From an uncultured Methylomirabilota bacterium (GTDB lineage Bacteria; Methylomirabilota; Methylomirabilia; Methylomirabilales; 2-02-FULL-66-22): a DNA stretch of 64,000 nt. This document shows, in pieces, positions 1,982-36,388 of this stretch. The position numbers and the translations under genes are program-made. The stretch lies in the NCBI GenBank assembly GCA_963845565.1, contig CAWJSJ010000002.1, positions 1,600,001 to 1,664,000 on the forward strand, written 5' to 3'. The notes beneath the pieces are model-generated. The model saw only the letters and a program-made list of their open reading frames with translations. It had not been told where the DNA came from and did not search any database. Every line of letters begins with the position of its first letter. Position 1 is the stretch's first letter.

Positions 1982-2762
1982 TCAGGCCGGCCCTGTCGGG
2001 GTGACCGTCCACCAGATCACCGCGCTCTGCCGCCGCATCGGTGCGATGAGGCTAGGCGCCGGCCGGGCGTAGCCTGTTCTCTAGAAACTCGACGAGCGTC
2101 CGGCGCTGGGTGGGCTCGGTGAGTTCCATCTGTTGGACCCAGAACTCCGTGGCTTCCCGCATTGTGGCGAACGGCTGATCGAATTCGTAGCCGATGATCT
2201 GGACATTGGCGTAGATGCCGAGGCTGTGGAGCAGGTTGAGAGTGTGGAGGTAATCGTCGCGGGCGGGGTAGGGTCGGCCGAGGAGCAGGGGGTACAGCTC
2301 GCCGAGGTAGAATTTCTCCGCGCCGGGGCCCACGTTCTGCACGAACGCCATCGCACGGCACGCCAGGGGCTCCGCCGCCGTCAGGAAGCCCAGCAGATCC
2401 TTGAAGATGGGGGCCACGTTGGCCACCAGGACCAGGTCGTGGGGGGCGAGTGGGGACTCGCCCCAGGCGGCCTGCAGGCAGGTCACGTTCTCGAGGTGGT
2501 TCCGAGCGAGATTTGCCTGAAGCTCCTCCATCATGGTGGGAGAAGGTTCGAGGGCCGTGACCTGTTCGACCCGTTTGGCCAGCGGCACCGTGAGCGCTCC
2601 GACGCCGGCCCCGACGTCCAGGACGCTGCGGCAGTCCGCCAAGGCGGACTCGAGCGCCTTGATCGCCCGGGCCGGGAAGTCGCTCTGCTGGATGGCCTGG
2701 CTGAAGAGTCGAGCGCGATGCGGCGTCCAGTAGTCTTGCCCGCGATCCGAGTCGGAAGTCAC
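1982..2762 (-). CDS. Class I SAM-dependent methyltransferase, probable 1-bp frameshift near 2055
   Basis: Motif I VLDVGAGVG; ORF stops at 2052, but a shifted frame continues SLIAPMRRQSAVIWWTVTPTGPA* to 1982. Confidence 0.75.
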
Positions 2763-2772
2763 CGGGAACTCC

Positions 2773-3453
2773 TTAGCAGGCGCGGACCTTCCGGGCGATG
2801 GTCAGCCATTCGCGATGGGTCACGGGGCCGCTGTCGGGTACCTCGGCCAGGTCCACGATTTCGCAGGTGAGCAGGTCGAAGCGGTCCGGCGGCAGGAGCG
2901 CCGCGATGTCGTCGGCGTCGAAGAAATGCATCCGCTTGCCCTTGGGATCGATGCGGGTGTTGGGTTCCGGGTGCGGTTCCCAGGTGGAGAATCCCGCCTC
3001 GTCCGTCGAGAAGTTGGTCATGGCAATCAGCCCGCCGTCCCGGGTGAGGCCCCAGAGGCGGTTCACCATGGCGCGCCGAACCGGCTCGGGCTGCAGGTGG
3101 ATCAGGTGCACGGCCACCGCGGCATCGAACGATCCCTGGGGGAGGTCGGCCGCCAGGAGGTCCCCGGCGATGAAGTGGACCGACAGGCCGTCGCGGACGG
3201 CCTGTTCCTCCGCCCATCGGAGCGCGTTCGCGCTCAGGTCGAGACCGGTGACGGCAAATCCCTCACGCGCGTAGAAGAGGGCGTCCCGACCGGAGCCGCA
3301 GCCGGCCTCCAGGAGTCGCACCACCTTCTCGCGCCGGAAGAGCGCGCCGAGCCGGCGGGCAACGGAGGTCGGCTCGGTCCCGTAGAGCCGCGCCTCCGCG
3401 TACCGCGCGTCCCAGAACGCCGCCGCATCCTCCGGCTCCACCGCGCGCACCAT
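2773..3453 (-). CDS. Class I SAM-dependent methyltransferase
   Basis: FWDARY, LLEAGCGSGRD, VTGLDLS; GGAG RBS 7 nt before ATG 3453. Confidence 0.85.
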   Translation of the reverse strand: MVRAVEPEDAAAFWDARYAEARLYGTEPTSVARRLGALFRREKVVRLLEAGCGSGRDALFYAREGFAVTGLDLSANALRWAEEQAVRDGLSVHFIAGDLLAADLPQGSFDAAVAVHLIHLQPEPVRRAMVNRLWGLTRDGGLIAMTNFSTDEAGFSTWEPHPEPNTRIDPKGKRMHFFDADDIAALLPPDRFDLLTCEIVDLAEVPDSGPVTHREWLTIARKVRAC

Positions 3454-28323: not shown

Positions 28324-29709
28324 TTATCGCTGCTTCAAGAGCCAATCGATGATTTCGGAGCCATCCCGTGGCCCCCTCTTCGTCCCGGGCGCGACGTCTT
28401 GCGGGGGCGCGGGAGGTCGGGTCCTCCGGGAGGATTTGACCTTCCCTTCCGTCGGGGGGGACGTGGGTTTCGTCTCTCCCAGCCCCTCCCTCTCCTTGGG
28501 CGGAGGTTCCGGAAGCACCCGTTCCGGACGCGGCTGTGCCTGCGAAGGTGGAGCCGGCAGCTCCGGCGCCCTCTTTTCGGATTCTTCCGCAGGCGCCGGT
28601 TCAGGGATCACCGTCTGACGTGGTTGCGGTTGGGGCGGCGGCTGGTACGTGTCCTCCGGGGCCCACCGAGGGTAGAGCACCCAGAATGACGCGGCGGCGA
28701 GCACGAGGAGCACGCCGACGATCGCGGTGACGATCCACCGCGTGCCCACCCGCGGACGCTGCGAGGGTTGTCCCCCGGCCTTGGCCGCCGTGGCCACGGG
28801 CCGACGTCCGCTGGTTGGCTTCCCCACTCGCCCCGCCCCTACCCGTTGCAGGAACTCGTGGACCACCTCGTTCGCGCTGTTCTGGCGCCATTTCGGCGCT
28901 TTCTCCAGCGCCCGCAGGATCTGGGCCTCGATCTCGACCGGGATCTCCGCCCGCAATGCCTTGGGTGGAGTCGGCGCGACCGAGAGGTGCATGGCCAGGA
29001 CGGCCTCGGACGTGGACCCGCGGAAGGGGACGACGCCTGTCAGCATTTGGTAGAGGACGATCCCGAAGGCATAGATGTCCGTCTGTTTGGTGATCTCCCG
29101 TCGTTGGATCTGCTCCGGAGCCGCATACGCCGGCGTGCGCGTGAGTTGCGTCGCGGGAACGAGGTGATCCATGGCCCCCGCGTTCTTCAACCGCGCCCGC
29201 TCGAAGCCGATGAGCTTCACGGTGTCCTTGTCCCCCAGGACCAGGACGTTCTTCGGGTGCACGTCCGTGTGGACAAGACTCGCATCATGGGCCGCGGTCA
29301 ATCCCTCGGCCATCTGGACGGCCACGGACAAGGCGCGGTCGATCTGGAGGACCCCTTTCTCCTGCCGCAGCACGTCGTGCAGGGTCCGTCCCTCGATCTG
29401 CTCCATCACGATGAAGAGGCTGCCATCGTCCGCTTGGTCGCAGTCGTACACTCTGACGATATGGGGTTGCGTCTTCGAGAGGGCTGCGACGGCCATCATC
29501 TGTCGATGGAGCCTCTCCACAAACTCCTTTCCCTTCGTAAACTCGCCCCGGAACAGCTTCACGACGAGCCCGGCCCCCGTCCCGTGCTGCTGGGCAAGGT
29601 ACGTCACCCCCAGGCTGCCCGTCGCGAGCCGGCGCGTCACGTGGTACTTGCCCTTGATCACCTGGCCGACCAAGGGGTCCGCGGCTCCCCCATCCCCCGT
29701 CCGCTCCAC
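28324..29709 (-). CDS. Membrane-anchored Hanks-type Ser/Thr kinase-like protein, probable pseudokinase
   Basis: Kinase subdomains VVKLF, HTDVHPKNVLV, YAAPEQ, DIYAFGIVLYQMLTG; one TM helix; Pro-rich tail; GTG after GGAGGAG. Confidence 0.8.
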   Translation of the reverse strand: MERTGDGGAADPLVGQVIKGKYHVTRRLATGSLGVTYLAQQHGTGAGLVVKLFRGEFTKGKEFVERLHRQMMAVAALSKTQPHIVRVYDCDQADDGSLFIVMEQIEGRTLHDVLRQEKGVLQIDRALSVAVQMAEGLTAAHDASLVHTDVHPKNVLVLGDKDTVKLIGFERARLKNAGAMDHLVPATQLTRTPAYAAPEQIQRREITKQTDIYAFGIVLYQMLTGVVPFRGSTSEAVLAMHLSVAPTPPKALRAEIPVEIEAQILRALEKAPKWRQNSANEVVHEFLQRVGAGRVGKPTSGRRPVATAAKAGGQPSQRPRVGTRWIVTAIVGVLLVLAAASFWVLYPRWAPEDTYQPPPQPQPRQTVIPEPAPAEESEKRAPELPAPPSQAQPRPERVLPEPPPKEREGLGETKPTSPPTEGKVKSSRRTRPPAPPQDVAPGTKRGPRDGSEIIDWLLKQR

Positions 29710-29903
29710 GGTGCTCCTCCTCTTCTCACACCGGTGCGTCGGGGCCGCCGGGCACTGTGTGTCTTGCCCCGACCCGGCGGTCCGGGAATATACTACCTCA
29801 CCCCCTTCCATAACTCCAGTGGACGCACCGGGGACGGGAGGCGGGAGAGCGTGAGGCGAGCGAGCAGAGGACAGTGCGGCAGCGGGACAGGGGAGGGGTG
29901 GGG

Positions 29904-31106
29904 CTAGGTCAGCGTGAGGAGCACGACCTCGGGCGGGGCGTTCAGGCGAATCGGGGTCCAGGCGGTGCCGATGCCGCGGGTCCCGTACGCGTGGGAGGCG
30001 TTGAGGCGATAGAGGCCCCCAGGGTACGGGCTCAGGAGGTGGGCCACGCTCAGCTCCAGGCCGGGGAGGTTCACCCGGATCTGGCCGCCATGCCAGTGAC
30101 CGGCGAGCGTCAGGGGAACCCCGTGACAGGCCGCATCCGGGAAGATCTCGGGGTAATGCGATAAGAGGAGCGTCGGGGTGGACGGATCGAGTCCGTGCAA
30201 CGCCGCTCCAAGATCCGGCCGCCCGCTCTCGAGGTCGTCTATCCCGGCAACGGCGAACGGCCCCTGGTCCGTCTGGATGACGCGATGGGCATTGTTCAGC
30301 AGCGCGATCTGCTGCGCGCGAAAGACGGCCTCGATCTCGCGCGGGTTCCCGTACCAGTGCTCGTGGTTTCCCAGGACGGCAAAGGTGCCGTAGCGGGAGC
30401 GCACCCGCGCCAGCTCCTCGGCGCACCCGTACAGGAACGACATCGCGTTGGAGATGAAATCCCCGGTGAGGACGAACAGGTCCGGCTGGAGGGTATTCGC
30501 CAGGTCGGCATAGTCTTTCACTGCATCGCGCGTCATGTACAATCCGGCGTGGATGTCGCTGAGGTGGACCACGCGCAGCGAGCGGCCGAACGGCACGGAG
30601 AGCTCGGTGACCCGATACGCCCTGGTGGCGTATGCCGAACGGTATCCCACAAACACGAAAGGGGCCGAGGCGAGGCCGGCCAAGCCGGCCTGGAGCAACC
30701 GACGCCGGTGGATGTCTCTCGGCGCCGGCGGCGCGGCCCCCGCCGCACGCCTCGAGAGCCGGGAGGCGAGATGGCGCAGGCGGCTGGCGGCTCGAAGCAG
30801 GCACAGCACCACGGCGGAGAGTATTGACCCGTAGTTCCACACCACCGCCGGAAACAGCAGGCCGACCTGGGCGGCGAACGGGGGCTCCACCCAGGGCAGG
30901 CGGGCGAGCACGACGTAGGCGTGGAGCACCCACAGGCACGCGATGGCGGCGCCGACGTACCACGTCGCCCGCGACCGGAATCGCGCGGACCACGCCGAGG
31001 CCCGGAGGGCCCGGCGGACCTGGAGGAAGAGGTAGATTTACGCCAGGGCCCCGACCAGCAGGATGGCCGGGCGAAAGAGCAAGAGAGCGGCACCAAGCGC
31101 GTGCAT
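29904..31106 (-). pseudogene. Membrane metallophosphoesterase (YkuE-like) with an in-frame TAA at codon 23
   Basis: SDIH, TGDF, GNHE and GHWHGGQ motifs; in-frame N-terminus MHALG...GALA*IYLFLQ with TAA at 31038-31040. Confidence 0.7.
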
Positions 31107-31207
31107 GCGGCGGACTCCGGTTCAAATGCTTGCTGCGACCCGGAAGATATGAGAACCTCCGGGCATGCGCAAGCGCCTCTGTCTGGAAGCCATGCGAAGG
31201 AACGGAT

Positions 31208-31663
31208 ATGCAACCGGAACCGGATGTGAGCAAGGCCAGGCAGCTCCGCCCATCGGTGGCGGCGATCATCCCCAACGACGACGGGCACGTCCTGTTGCAG
31301 CGCCGATCGGATAACGGCCTGTGGGGCCTCCCCGGCGGCGGGGTGGAGATCGGGGAATCCGTCTCGACCGCCATCGTCCGGGAGGTCCAGGAAGAGACGG
31401 GGCTGACCGTGATGATCGAACGCCTGGTGGGGGTGTATTCCGACCCGCGGTTTCAGGTGGTCCGGTACGCGGATGGGAATGTCGTGCACTACATCAATAC
31501 CCTCTTCGTCTGTCGCATCGCGGGAGGGACGCTCCAGACCTGCGAGGAGACCCTGGATCTCCAGTTCTTCGACCCGGCGCACCTCCCCGAAGGAATGCTT
31601 CTCTCGCACCGGATCCGGGTCCAGGACGCCGTGGCCAACCGCCCCGAGGGGTTTATCCGGTGA
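31208..31663 (+). CDS. NUDIX hydrolase
   Basis: Nudix box GGGVEIGESVSTAIVREVQEETG. Confidence 0.92.
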   Translation: MQPEPDVSKARQLRPSVAAIIPNDDGHVLLQRRSDNGLWGLPGGGVEIGESVSTAIVREVQEETGLTVMIERLVGVYSDPRFQVVRYADGNVVHYINTLFVCRIAGGTLQTCEETLDLQFFDPAHLPEGMLLSHRIRVQDAVANRPEGFIR

Positions 31664-33831: not shown

Positions 33832-34650
33832 ATGGGAAAAAGCAACGAGGGCGGAAGTCGCGAGGGGCGGAGCGGGCGGCATTCGGCGAGCACGTTCCCG
33901 AACCGGTTCATCCCGCTGTACTACCAGCTGGAGAACATCCTGCGCTCCAAGATCGAAGGGGGCGAAGTTCTGCCCAACAACAAACTTCCGACGGAGCAGG
34001 AGCTGTCGAAGGAATACAAGATCAGCCGGGCGACGGTCCGGCAGGCGCTGGCGGCGCTCGTCTCGGAGGGGCTGCTCTACCGGAAGCAGGGAAAGGGCAC
34101 CTTCGTCACGGAGAAGGCCGGCCAGACCAAGACGGTGAAGCTGACCGGGTTCACCGAGGACCTCTTCTCCGAAGGGCACCAGGCCGAAGTGAAGATCATG
34201 GAGATTCGGTCGGTCCCGGCGCCGGAGCGCATCGCGTCCGTGCTGCGCGTCCCCGTCGGGGAAGAGGTGACCCGTTTCAAGCGGCTGCGGTCGCTGGATG
34301 GGGCGCCGTTCTCGTACGTGCTGAACTACCTGACGCCCGAGATCGGCGAGAAGATCAGCGAACGGGACCTGCAGCACCACACCATGCTCCACCTCCTGGA
34401 AGAGAAGCTGGGAATCGCGCTGGGAACGATCCGTCACGCGGTGGAGTCCGTCAAGGCGGACGTCGAAGTGGCCTCGCTTCTCGGTATCAGCGTCTTCGAG
34501 CCGGTCCTCTTCATGGAGACGGCCGTGTATTCCGCCGACGGACAGCCCGTTGAGACGGTGGATTCCTTCTTCCGCTCCGACCGGTACCGGTACACGGTGG
34601 AACTGATCCGCAGCCAGCAACTGCGAAAGGATCGGGCGAAGCGAAGGTAG
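33832..34650 (+). CDS. GntR-family (HutC/UTRA) transcriptional regulator
   Basis: PLYYQLE..LPTEQEL..ISRATVRQAL..QGKGTFV; C-terminal FRSDRYRY. Confidence 0.92.
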   Translation: MGKSNEGGSREGRSGRHSASTFPNRFIPLYYQLENILRSKIEGGEVLPNNKLPTEQELSKEYKISRATVRQALAALVSEGLLYRKQGKGTFVTEKAGQTKTVKLTGFTEDLFSEGHQAEVKIMEIRSVPAPERIASVLRVPVGEEVTRFKRLRSLDGAPFSYVLNYLTPEIGEKISERDLQHHTMLHLLEEKLGIALGTIRHAVESVKADVEVASLLGISVFEPVLFMETAVYSADGQPVETVDSFFRSDRYRYTVELIRSQQLRKDRAKRR

Positions 34651-34658
34651 GGAAGAGA

Positions 34659-34792
34659 CAGCGCTCAGCTTTCAGCGGTCAGCTATCAGCTATCGGAATG
34701 GGAACCTATACAGCGAACCGGGGGAGTGTCTTGACTCCCCCGGTTTCGTTCTTGGCTGATCGCTGAAAGCTGAGCGCTGACCGCTGATCGCT
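34659..34792. repeat. Inverted pair of 7-bp tandem repeat tracts with a central hairpin
   Basis: (TCAGCNN)n ... GAACCGGGGGAGT-GTCTTG-ACTCCCCCGGTT ... (NNGCTGA)n. Confidence 0.7.
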
Positions 34793-35735
34793 ACAGGTAC
34801 TGCCCGTAGCGGATCTTCTCGATGATTTCCTTGGTCTTCCGATAATCCTCGACCGCGCGCTGCATGTCCTCGGTGACCACCGGACCGGGCTGGGCGCCGG
34901 CCCCTTCCTGGCGGACCTTCTCCTCCAGCGACTTCTGCACGATCTCGGCCAGGTCTGCGCTGTTCAACTTGACCGTGCGGGCCAGGATGGCGTCCAGATC
35001 CAGCTCCCCGAACAGGCGGCGTCCCGCCAGGGCCTCGGCCTTGGCCATGTGGATCCGCAGGATCTCTCGCTTGCCCTCGGTTTCCGGGAGGGGCACCTCG
35101 ATGAGCTGGTCCAGCCGGCCGGCCCGGATCAGCGTGGGATCCACCGCGTCGGCCCGATTGGTGGAGGCAACGGCCAAGATGTCTCCGGACCGGCCGATGT
35201 CGTCCAGTTGCTCTGCCACGCTGTTGACCAGGCGACGGCTGGCGGTGCGCATTTCCTCGGGGGCCGCCCGGTCGAAGACCAGATCGTCGATCTCGTCCAG
35301 AAAGAGGACGGCGCGGCCGCTCTCCTTGACCTGGCTGAAGACCTCCTGCAGCACGTCGAAGGAATCGGCGTACCACTTGGTCACCACGTTGGTCACCCGC
35401 ACGTGGAAGAACACCGCCTCGGCTTCCCGGGCCAACGCCATGGCGAGGAGGGTCTTGCCCGTGCCCGGTGGGCCATACAGCAAGACCCCGTTCGGGGGCT
35501 GGGTCCCCCATTTCTTGTGCAGGTCCGGGCTCTTCAGCGCGAAGACCAGCCCGGCGATCTCGTGCTTGGCGCGGACGAGGTCCCCGATATCCGCGAAGGC
35601 GACCTCGGGCCTCATGCTGACTTCGATCTTGCCCTTCATGTCCCCGAAACGCTTGGCCAGCCGCGCCACGAAATCCTCGAGTTTGCGCCGCAGGACCTCC
35701 GGGGTATGGCCCGTCAGCATCTTTCGTTCGGTCAT
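34791..35735 (-). CDS. Single-domain AAA+ ATPase of PAN/ARC type with C-terminal GQYL
   Basis: PEVAFADIGDL, Walker A GPPGTGKT, Walker B LFLDEID, SRH TNRADAVDPTLIRAGRLD, ends IRYGQYL. Confidence 0.88.
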   Translation of the reverse strand: MTERKMLTGHTPEVLRRKLEDFVARLAKRFGDMKGKIEVSMRPEVAFADIGDLVRAKHEIAGLVFALKSPDLHKKWGTQPPNGVLLYGPPGTGKTLLAMALAREAEAVFFHVRVTNVVTKWYADSFDVLQEVFSQVKESGRAVLFLDEIDDLVFDRAAPEEMRTASRRLVNSVAEQLDDIGRSGDILAVASTNRADAVDPTLIRAGRLDQLIEVPLPETEGKREILRIHMAKAEALAGRRLFGELDLDAILARTVKLNSADLAEIVQKSLEEKVRQEGAGAQPGPVVTEDMQRAVEDYRKTKEIIEKIRYGQYL

Positions 35736-35788: not shown

Positions 35789-36388
35789 TCAGCCGTCCAG
35801 CGAACCTGCGGCCTGAAAGAAGGTCTCCTCGAGTTTCTGCATCAGGGCCGGGATGTCGGTGCTGAGTACCAGCAGATCATGCCTTCGCCCCTGCACATCC
35901 ACGATCTGACCGGCCAGGCGCGCCTCCCGACGGAACCCCAGCTTTTCGAAGACCTTGGCGGCCGGAAGCTGGTCCGCGGCCACCTCCGCCACCATCTTGT
36001 CCAGACCGGCCTGCAGTGCCAGATAGAAGATCTCCCTTGCCAACGCCGAGGCGAGACCGCGACGCCGGACAAACGGATCGGTGGTGACGCGAATCTCCCC
36101 GAGATGGCGCATCCAGCCTACCGGATGGCGATGGAGCGTGGCGTCCCCGACGATCTGCCCATCCTGCTCGGCGAGGATGGGCAACACCCGGTCGAAATCC
36201 GGCTCCCGACACCAGGCACGGACGAGGTCCGCCCGCGTCACGTCGTCCCGGAGGAACTGGCGATCCTCCGGGGACAAGCGGCGAAAGAAATCCAGGAGCG
36301 CTCGCTCGTCTGCCGCTACCAGCGGACGCAGGACGACCGGCGTGCCGTCCCGCAAGGCGATCTGTTTCGGGAACTCCCTGAGCGGCAC
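35789..36388 (-). CDS. GNAT-family acetyltransferase
   Basis: LRDGTPVVLRPL, RRRGLASAL, FEKLGFRRE. Confidence 0.85.
   Translation of the reverse strand: MPLREFPKQIALRDGTPVVLRPLVAADERALLDFFRRLSPEDRQFLRDDVTRADLVRAWCREPDFDRVLPILAEQDGQIVGDATLHRHPVGWMRHLGEIRVTTDPFVRRRGLASALAREIFYLALQAGLDKMVAEVAADQLPAAKVFEKLGFRREARLAGQIVDVQGRRHDLLVLSTDIPALMQKLEETFFQAAGSLDG

Follow-up and report, generated by a model that had tools for sequence, protein, structure and literature searches.

A short AAA ATPase with an invariant GQYL tail is a candidate Pup-independent second proteasome cap in Methylomirabilota

We found that a short AAA ATPase encoded in a Methylomirabilota genome ends in GQYL, that this tail is kept in all 68 orthologs compared, and that the same genome holds a complete proteasome operon. 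The protein, hereafter the short AAA, lies in a window of 64,000 nucleotides, meaning the whole stretch of DNA analyzed (C2:1600001-1664000 of genome G000, which spans 5.36 Mb in six contigs). Our best explanation, for which we consider the chances evenly balanced, is that the short AAA is a stand-alone PAN-like ATPase that docks on its own 20S via GQYL and acts as a Pup-independent second cap. It likely represents an undescribed minimal class of 20S-docking AAA regulator, and literature searches, assessed on listings and abstracts, returned no description of a short, single-module AAA protein with a GQYL end. An earlier note on this DNA had interpreted the protein as a proteasome cap or competitor, and our results support that interpretation in part, every computational check that it had suggested proving either favorable or uninformative. 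An entire phylum outside the Actinobacteria conserves the short AAA, which would set an essential docking tail on the smallest possible ATPase body.

The architecture described in the earlier note was borne out in all respects by the ORF list, Pfam, and NCBIfam: 314 residues, one AAA module (PF00004, residues 84-216, E 2.9e-30 by Pfam), ~40 residues ahead of that module, and a C-terminus that reads EKIRYGQYL (Table 1). The same note had claimed that the Pup-binding N-terminal region is missing, and this held as well. Pfam gave no coiled-coil or OB match ahead of the AAA module, and instead of an N-terminal coiled coil and OB-fold ring, the ~40 residues before the module comprise one helix and one strand. 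Between its flanking stops the reading frame spans only 361 codons, and the ORF begins at the first start codon in it; therefore, a longer N-terminus is impossible. Among NCBIfam models, the protein scored 183 bits for PAN, 174 for CDC48, 147 for FtsH, and 95 for ARC/Mpa, all far under the respective cut-offs. Alignment with the PAN and CDC48 models begins at residues 26-42, and for PAN it pairs residues 26-301 with model positions 92-358 of 362.

Table 1. Coordinates of the short AAA gene, its sequence and structural features, its neighbors, and proteasome genes named in the text. Positions are those of the window unless a contig is given.
Feature	Coordinates	Strand	Basis or remark
Short AAA gene, 314 aa, ATG start	34791..35735	(-)	ORF list; Pfam AAA; stop codon 34791-34793
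Walker A GPPGTGKT, residues 88-95	35451..35474	(-)	Near-invariant across 68 orthologs
Pore loop 1 TKWYADS, residues 119-125	35361..35381	(-)	Ortholog alignment, n = 68
Walker B LFLDEID, residues 144-150	35286..35306	(-)	Ortholog alignment, n = 68
SRH arginines R204 and R207	35115..35126	(-)	Both present in the short AAA of the window
N-terminal helix, residues 12-30	35646..35702	(-)	AlphaFold2 model
Four-helix lid domain, residues 219-309, bearing the tail	34809..35081	(-)	AlphaFold2 model
C-terminal tail codons R309-Y-G-Q-Y-L314, predicted 20S alpha-ring docking motif	34794..34811	(-)	Ortholog invariance
GNAT acetyltransferase gene, upstream, 54 bp from AAA start	35789..36388	(-)	Acetyltransf_1, E 9.5e-14
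GntR/UTRA regulator gene, convergent, downstream	33832..34650	(+)	Pfam GntR and UTRA
Pup-like gene	C4:139186-139383		Product ends GGE
arc	C4:139867-141702		725 bits, over cut-off; product ends TGHYL

The last residues vary hardly at all across the family. We compared 68 orthologs from 68 loci (setting aside one truncated locus and two others whose genomes are unpublished), which share 40-100% pairwise identity with a median of 52%. RYGQYL is the C-terminal end in all 68, and although only 31 of the 314 columns are invariant, residues 309-314 form the sole invariant run of more than two residues. The codons of the tail vary synonymously, with four codons used for Gly, six for Leu, TAC in 42 and TAT in 26 orthologs for Y313, and all three stop codons seen; therefore, selection acts on the peptide. 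Among the 120 closest database clusters listed, which are 80-96% identical to the short AAA and nearly all exactly 314 aa, 119 end in GQYL and the remaining one in GHYL. At 50% clustering, only three short clusters appeared among the best 150 matches listed, and two distant cluster representatives (308 and 314 aa, 42-43% identity) retain EKIRYGQYL. The earlier note had offered conservation of GQYL among orthologs as a check on its reading, and these counts confirm it. Within G000, a mechanical six-frame scan of the ends of ORFs of at least 80 aa (n = 24,322) found only two that end in G[QH]YL, namely the short AAA (GQYL) and ARC (GHYL), while a 244-aa ORF ending in NWQYL had no Pfam match. The GQYL end of the short AAA exceeds chance and, with Tyr as the penultimate residue, fits the C-terminal docking motif (HbYX or GQYL) of 20S-docking AAA activators of the PAN, Rpt, and Mpa/ARC type.

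Across the same orthologs, the tail is better preserved than the catalytic features. The protein in the window has the complete canonical set of catalytic residues (Walker A and B, the pore-loop aromatic, and the SRH arginines), and G88, P90, G91, G93, and K94 of Walker A are invariant in a 61-row alignment (A2) with sister proteins included. The canonical form of the pore loop is K-aromatic-hydrophobic-G; TKWYADS departs from this form yet retains the aromatic residue, so the divergence remarked on in the earlier note is real. In the 68 orthologs, K120 is found in 65 and F or W at position 121 in 61, with G at position 122 in 39 and Y in 21. Walker B retains D147 in 64/68 and E148 in 61/68 (3 Q, 4 D). 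At sensor-1, Asn is present in 30/68 and Ser or Thr in 33, and the first SRH arginine, R204, is kept in just 17/68 (Ala in 34) compared to 67/68 for the second, R207. Such partly degenerate residues call into question whether orthologs outside the window's clade would be robust unfoldases.

Family matches at E <= 1e-60 occurred in 200 of 251 genomes of the phylum, at a fixed length of ~308-315 aa. The 251-genome tallies take in the unpublished genomes G033, G043, G075, G216, and G217, without which 195 of 246 carry the short AAA. The names of family members point to Methylomirabilota/Rokubacteria, and one source puts a close homolog in Acidobacteriota. A scan of contigs with a generic Walker A pattern returned a single family locus (L043, Candidatus Rokuibacteriota) alongside 79 unrelated AAA loci; because it covered only 1/64 parts and was swamped by generic Walker A matches, it says little on occurrence outside the phylum. 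In a quick maximum-likelihood tree of 84 AAA modules, midpoint-rooted and with SH-aLRT support only, the family formed one clade (100) that grouped with unnamed proteins of 376-561 aa (support 100, stem length 0.91). Outside it fell ARC (100), PAN-length archaeal proteins (99), Cdc48 D1/D2, and FtsH-like modules. The sister proteins of 376-561 aa have an N-terminal domain and no GQYL, and in nine of them Pfam recognized the AAA module alone. The short form, therefore, looks like a derived one that lost the N domain and gained the tail, with this polarity inferred from a midpoint-rooted tree.

A candidate 20S partner is encoded in the same genome. Contig C4 of G000 carries a complete pup-arc-dop-prcB-prcA-pafA operon, so that the genome search proposed in the earlier note, for 20S subunits, pup, pafA/dop, and a full-length arc, recovered every component; the short AAA gene, on C2, lies outside this operon, as had been stated. 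PrcA is highly conserved in the phylum, and its K52, which we take to be the alpha-ring pocket lysine, is invariant in 16/16 sequences. The third proteasome-family match in G000, on C5, is HslV, which is an unlikely docking target because HslU (672 bits) adjoins it.

Across the phylum, the 20S alpha subunit (TIGR03691) was detected in 194 of 251 genomes. The short AAA and 20S alpha were both present in 157 genomes, the short AAA only in 43, 20S only in 37, and neither in 14 (odds ratio ~1.4). This is no association, and we judge the comparison to be uninformative, not negative: almost every genome carries each of the two genes, and short-read MAGs tend to be broken within the operon. Those breaks are explained by an identical 509-bp block, one copy in dop and one in pafA, on either side of prcBA (C4:142468-142976 and 145575-146083). 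Of 12 high-completeness genomes scored as carrying the short AAA alone, 10 retain parts of the operon, mostly at the ends of contigs. Pieces of prcB or of a Pup ligase lie at contig edges in four, a C-terminal Pup-ligase fragment is present in G042, a sub-threshold Pup-ligase trace is all that G153 shows, G135 encodes a complete ARC, and three have N-terminal ARC fragments. The other two, G218 (93% complete) and G003 (93%), have the short AAA and gave no operon trace with the families searched. Among these 12, none is a robust case of a carrier that lacks a proteasome system. In the other direction, 18/20 genomes of family f7 have 20S and 2/20 have the short AAA; therefore, 20S does not need it. 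The short AAA is also absent from the closed genome G052, and it is accessory to the 20S.

To place the tail in three dimensions, we used an AlphaFold2 model built on the 61-row alignment (pLDDT 91, pTM 0.88). The model consists of a helix at residues 12-30, a strand at 37-40, the AAA core, and a lid of four helices (219-237, 247-251, 259-278, and 288-309), after which YGQYL is modeled as non-helical at low confidence, leaving the tail exposed and flexible. The nearest solved chains are the PAN AAA domains 3whk and 3h4m (TM 0.91, rmsd 2.2-2.5 Å, 31-34% identity), with FtsH, p97 D2, and Rpt subunits next. Predicted docking of residues 218-314 with two PrcA copies scored 0.58 (runs of 0.56, 0.58, and 0.59) compared to 0.00, 0.31, and 0.00 in three controls, and the runs share at least 66% of contacts with a partner pLDDT of at least 78. 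The docking mark was reached by 116/157 solved complexes and 2/215 mismatched pairs, and scores of 0.60 or below comprised just 18 of the 157 solved complexes together with both mismatches. The prediction weakly favors contact between the tail and the 20S, and the score may reflect model memory of GQYL-20S complexes that have already been solved.

In the mechanism that we propose, the short AAA would assemble into a ring and its GQYL tails would insert into the pockets between alpha subunits, where the invariant K52 lies, after which the gate would open. The ring would then use ATP to thread non-pupylated substrates; the short AAA has no coiled coil or OB ring with which to bind Pup. It would serve in this way as a second cap beside the canonical ARC. 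In Rokubacteria, the translationally coupled BFN-domain (DUF151) protein is a candidate adaptor or substrate. We put forward more tentatively the broader idea that a short AAA ring without an N domain is a fourth kind of bacterial activator, one that could carry out Pup-independent, ATP-dependent degradation of clients brought in by the N-terminal helix or by the BFN/DUF151 protein. Several points speak against the cap reading: the absence of operon linkage, the uninformative co-occurrence within the phylum, the first SRH arginine and sensor-1 Asn, both degenerate in most orthologs, the lack of an N-terminal ring that would stabilize a hexamer, and a docking score in the weak range.

The gene's surroundings bear on these partners. 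The GNAT gene lies upstream in 12/69 family loci, all within the window's genus, where it is a probable operon partner, and the GntR/UTRA gene is syntenic in 10/69. In 39 of ~41 Rokubacteria loci, the short AAA gene is preceded on its own strand by a BFN_dom gene (PF02577/DUF151), whose stop overlaps the start of the short AAA gene in the loci inspected. A 4HBT thioesterase gene follows 30 bp downstream in 33 Rokubacteria loci, and an ABC transporter is also a conserved neighbor. BFN coupling is absent from the window's order, and the tail is equally invariant there. No proteasome gene adjoins the short AAA in 67/69 family loci. In two species of the genus (G020 and G012), an arc copy ending in TGHYL is convergent to the short AAA gene at a distance of 117-125 bp, and in G020 the arc gene of the operon is itself fragmented; this adjacency is probably a single evolutionary event and hence anecdotal. 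In a chloroplast study, DUF151 proteins ranked near the top of the proteins enriched on a trapped AAA+ unfoldase (PMC8889267), which by analogy provides a lead for a candidate adaptor or substrate role of the BFN protein. An anti-phage reading (Iet, PADLOC) was also considered and rejected, as the IetA score of 84 bits is generic AAA similarity and the GNAT neighbor had no PADLOC match.

The tail could be invariant for reasons other than the proteasome. p97 engages adaptor domains with its C-terminal tail, and by the same token the tail of the short AAA might contact another partner (e.g., the co-transcribed BFN protein or a cofactor) or pack within or between subunits so as to stabilize the AAA ring, with the match to GQYL being convergent. 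We regard this as unlikely, although several observations favor it: the neighborhood is conserved and non-proteasomal (BFN_dom in 39 of ~41 loci, thioesterase in 33), the conserved EKIRYGQYL exceeds a minimal docking motif, the 20S co-occurrence is uninformative, and DUF151 proteins were enriched on the trapped unfoldase in the chloroplast study (PMC8889267). Yet the tail is just as invariant where BFN coupling is absent, as in the window's order, and the model leaves it exposed and flexible instead of packing it. Its last four residues are also those with which the cognate ARC of these genomes ends, it is one of just two G[QH]YL ORF ends in G000, and its docking prediction lies above all three controls.

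If the tail does bind the 20S, the protein need not be an unfoldase. It might occupy the alpha-ring pockets to open or block the gate or to displace ARC, with nucleotide used mainly for assembly, a reading that we consider somewhat less likely still. Walker A, the Walker B D/E, R207, and the pore-loop aromatic are retained in the great majority of orthologs, and the full catalytic set of the window's protein points to a working motor, in this clade at least. What keeps such a regulator under consideration is that the tail is better conserved than the catalytic machinery (R204 in 17/68, sensor-1 Asn in 30/68, E148Q in 3/68), that no substrate-recognition domain precedes the AAA module, and that, according to a 2025 review, the regulation of activator association with the 20S is not understood (PMC12288473). 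By contrast, we give hardly any probability to the idea that the gene is a functionless remnant, whether arc or another proteasomal ATPase cut short at its 5' end or a paralogue of one in decay; conservation and phylogeny refute it. The protein is short and has no coiled-coil and OB region, as such a fragment would be, and the closed genome G017 of the genus has a copy with its middle third out of frame. However, the short AAA scores 95.2 bits against the ARC cut-off of 504.75, shares 33% identity with the ARC of G000, and belongs to its own clade apart from ARC, PAN, Cdc48, and FtsH (SH-aLRT 100). A truncated arc fragment, one of three outcomes that the earlier note had named as overturning its reading, is ruled out on these grounds; the other two, a genome without 20S subunits and orthologs that do not keep GQYL, do not apply either. 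Moreover, its length is fixed at ~308-315 aa in 200/251 genomes, its tail varies only synonymously, and contigs matching the gene exactly occur in RNA libraries of three studies, where DNA carry-over is possible.

Docking of a PAN-like ATPase on its own 20S remains our preferred reading. If bound to the 20S, the short AAA would offer a naturally minimal case in which to study the requirements for an AAA cap to open and feed the 20S, and it would provide a Pup-independent, ATP-dependent route, which is not known in bacteria. It could also be a competitor that regulates the access of ARC. Should it prove to be a fourth kind of activator, a bare AAA module with a four-residue tail would suffice as a proteasome cap. 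The short AAA is open to direct test with recombinant proteins, and the lineage that they would come from is environmental and non-pathogenic.

Comparison with known systems sets out what is shared and what is new. According to the 2025 review (PMC12288473), work in Actinobacteria has established three bacterial proteasome interactors, Mpa/ARC, Bpa/PafE, and Cpa. The same review states that Mpa and PafE cannot open the proteasome without GQYL, although its Gln is dispensable. Like Mpa/ARC (TIGR03689), the short AAA has a classical AAA module, matching last four residues, and a 20S in the same genome. In ten complete ARCs sampled from separate lineages within the phylum, the C-terminus reads TGQYL (seven) or TGHYL (three), and in Rokubacteria, ARC and the short AAA are identical in their last four residues. 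However, Mpa/ARC has a Pup-binding N-terminal coiled coil and double OB ring, both of which the short AAA is without, and the beta-grasp domain that the review ascribes to Mpa (PMC12288473) has no counterpart, as there is no extra domain between the lid and tail of the short AAA. Its bit score, separate clade, and position outside the operon likewise place it outside ARC.

PAN (TIGR01242) is the best match among sequence models (183 bits), with colinearity that stops just 13 residues short of the C-terminus. It is also the nearest fold among solved structures (PDB 3h4m, 3whk), and the docking tail comes directly after the lid in both. Still, the short AAA falls outside PAN at 183 and 182 bits (TIGR01242 and NF003069) against 500, and the PAN clade is separate (99). 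Unlike PAN, it is bacterial, has no coiled coil or OB domain, and ends in GQYL rather than the archaeal HbYX. Bpa/PafE shares the C-terminal GQYL and provides a Pup-independent 20S route, which the short AAA would also offer. The gene for Bpa/PafE lies outside the core proteasome operon in actinobacteria, as the short AAA gene does here. In contrast to the short AAA, Bpa is a helical dodecamer and no ATPase, and no Bpa-like protein was detected in G000 by a G[QH]YL end among ORFs of at least 80 aa. Finally, the D2 modules of VAT, Cdc48, and p97 are the closest solved proteins by sequence, and many archaeal Cdc48 proteins in the loci examined carry HbYX-like tails. Yet Cpa and archaeal Cdc48/VAT are 20S-interacting, double-ring AAA proteins, whereas the short AAA has a single AAA module, no N domain, no D1 ring, and a clade of its own.

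The short AAA gene of Rokubacteria lies in a conserved gene order: BFN_dom (PF02577/DUF151), short AAA, 4HBT thioesterase, and ABC transporter. In 39 of ~41 Rokubacteria loci, the BFN and short AAA genes are apparently translationally coupled. The two BFN genes of the source genome lie away from the short AAA gene. Metatranscriptomic contigs from three studies matched the AAA gene and a GNAT gene in the window exactly, which is compatible with expression of both genes, and DNA carry-over could also account for these matches. Elsewhere in the window, a long ORF appeared by eye to have a C-terminal half that resembles a Ser/Thr protein kinase and leads into a Pro-rich tail. The full-length call is probably over-extended, because a metallophosphoesterase-like ORF overlaps it on the same strand in a different frame.

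Within the window's genus, two species (G020 and G012) carry a copy of arc, complete or partial and with a TGHYL tail, beside the short AAA gene. The copy is convergent to the short AAA gene and inserted 117-125 bp away from it. The G020 operon's own arc and dop appear to be broken up among several ORFs. G017, a closed genome from this genus, has retained both the synteny and the EKIRYGQYL tail. Two compensating shifts put the middle third of its short AAA gene out of frame, indicating a pseudogene or else an indel error in the long reads.

Coordinates of the features discussed (G000, source genome)
Feature	Genome or locus	Position
Long ORF	window	28324-31374 (-)
Metallophosphoesterase-like ORF	window	29904-30929 (-)
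RNA match, AAA gene	window	34726-35530
RNA match, GNAT gene	window	36049-36395
Gene string, Rokubacteria	L124	3332-6596
Gene string, Rokubacteria	L133	2546-5600
Gene string, Rokubacteria	L142	3496-5507
BFN gene	G000	C1:996374
BFN gene	G000	C2:639585
Locus bearing on arc copies	L188, G020	C1:198000-217000
Locus bearing on arc copies	L189, G020	C3
Locus bearing on arc copies	L019, G012	C115:1-2753
Closed-genome locus	L213, G017	C1:2488500-2494500
Frame-shifted short AAA	L213	~2442-3383
Repeat block, dop/pafA	G000	C4:142468-142976
Repeat block, dop/pafA	G000	C4:145575-146083
NWQYL ORF	L212, G000	C2:2528179-2528913

An identical 509-bp stretch occurs in both dop and pafA of the source genome's proteasome operon, which lies outside the window; the two copies are 3.1 kb apart, with prcB-prcA between them. 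Because this repeat brackets prcB-prcA, it probably causes the operon to break in the phylum's short-read MAGs, which then seem to lack 20S genes.

Besides the short AAA and ARC, the only source-genome ORF of at least 80 aa ending in QYL or HYL was a 244-aa ORF with the terminus NWQYL, for which a Pfam search returned no match. An unnamed sister AAA family (P0139, P0147, P0151, P0159, P0160, P0168, P0181, P0182, and P0245) comprises proteins of 376-561 aa with 41-45% identity to the window protein in our 61-row alignment. These proteins have an additional N-terminal domain of 130-270 aa without family assignment, and most carry a G-F motif close to the C-terminus in place of GQYL.
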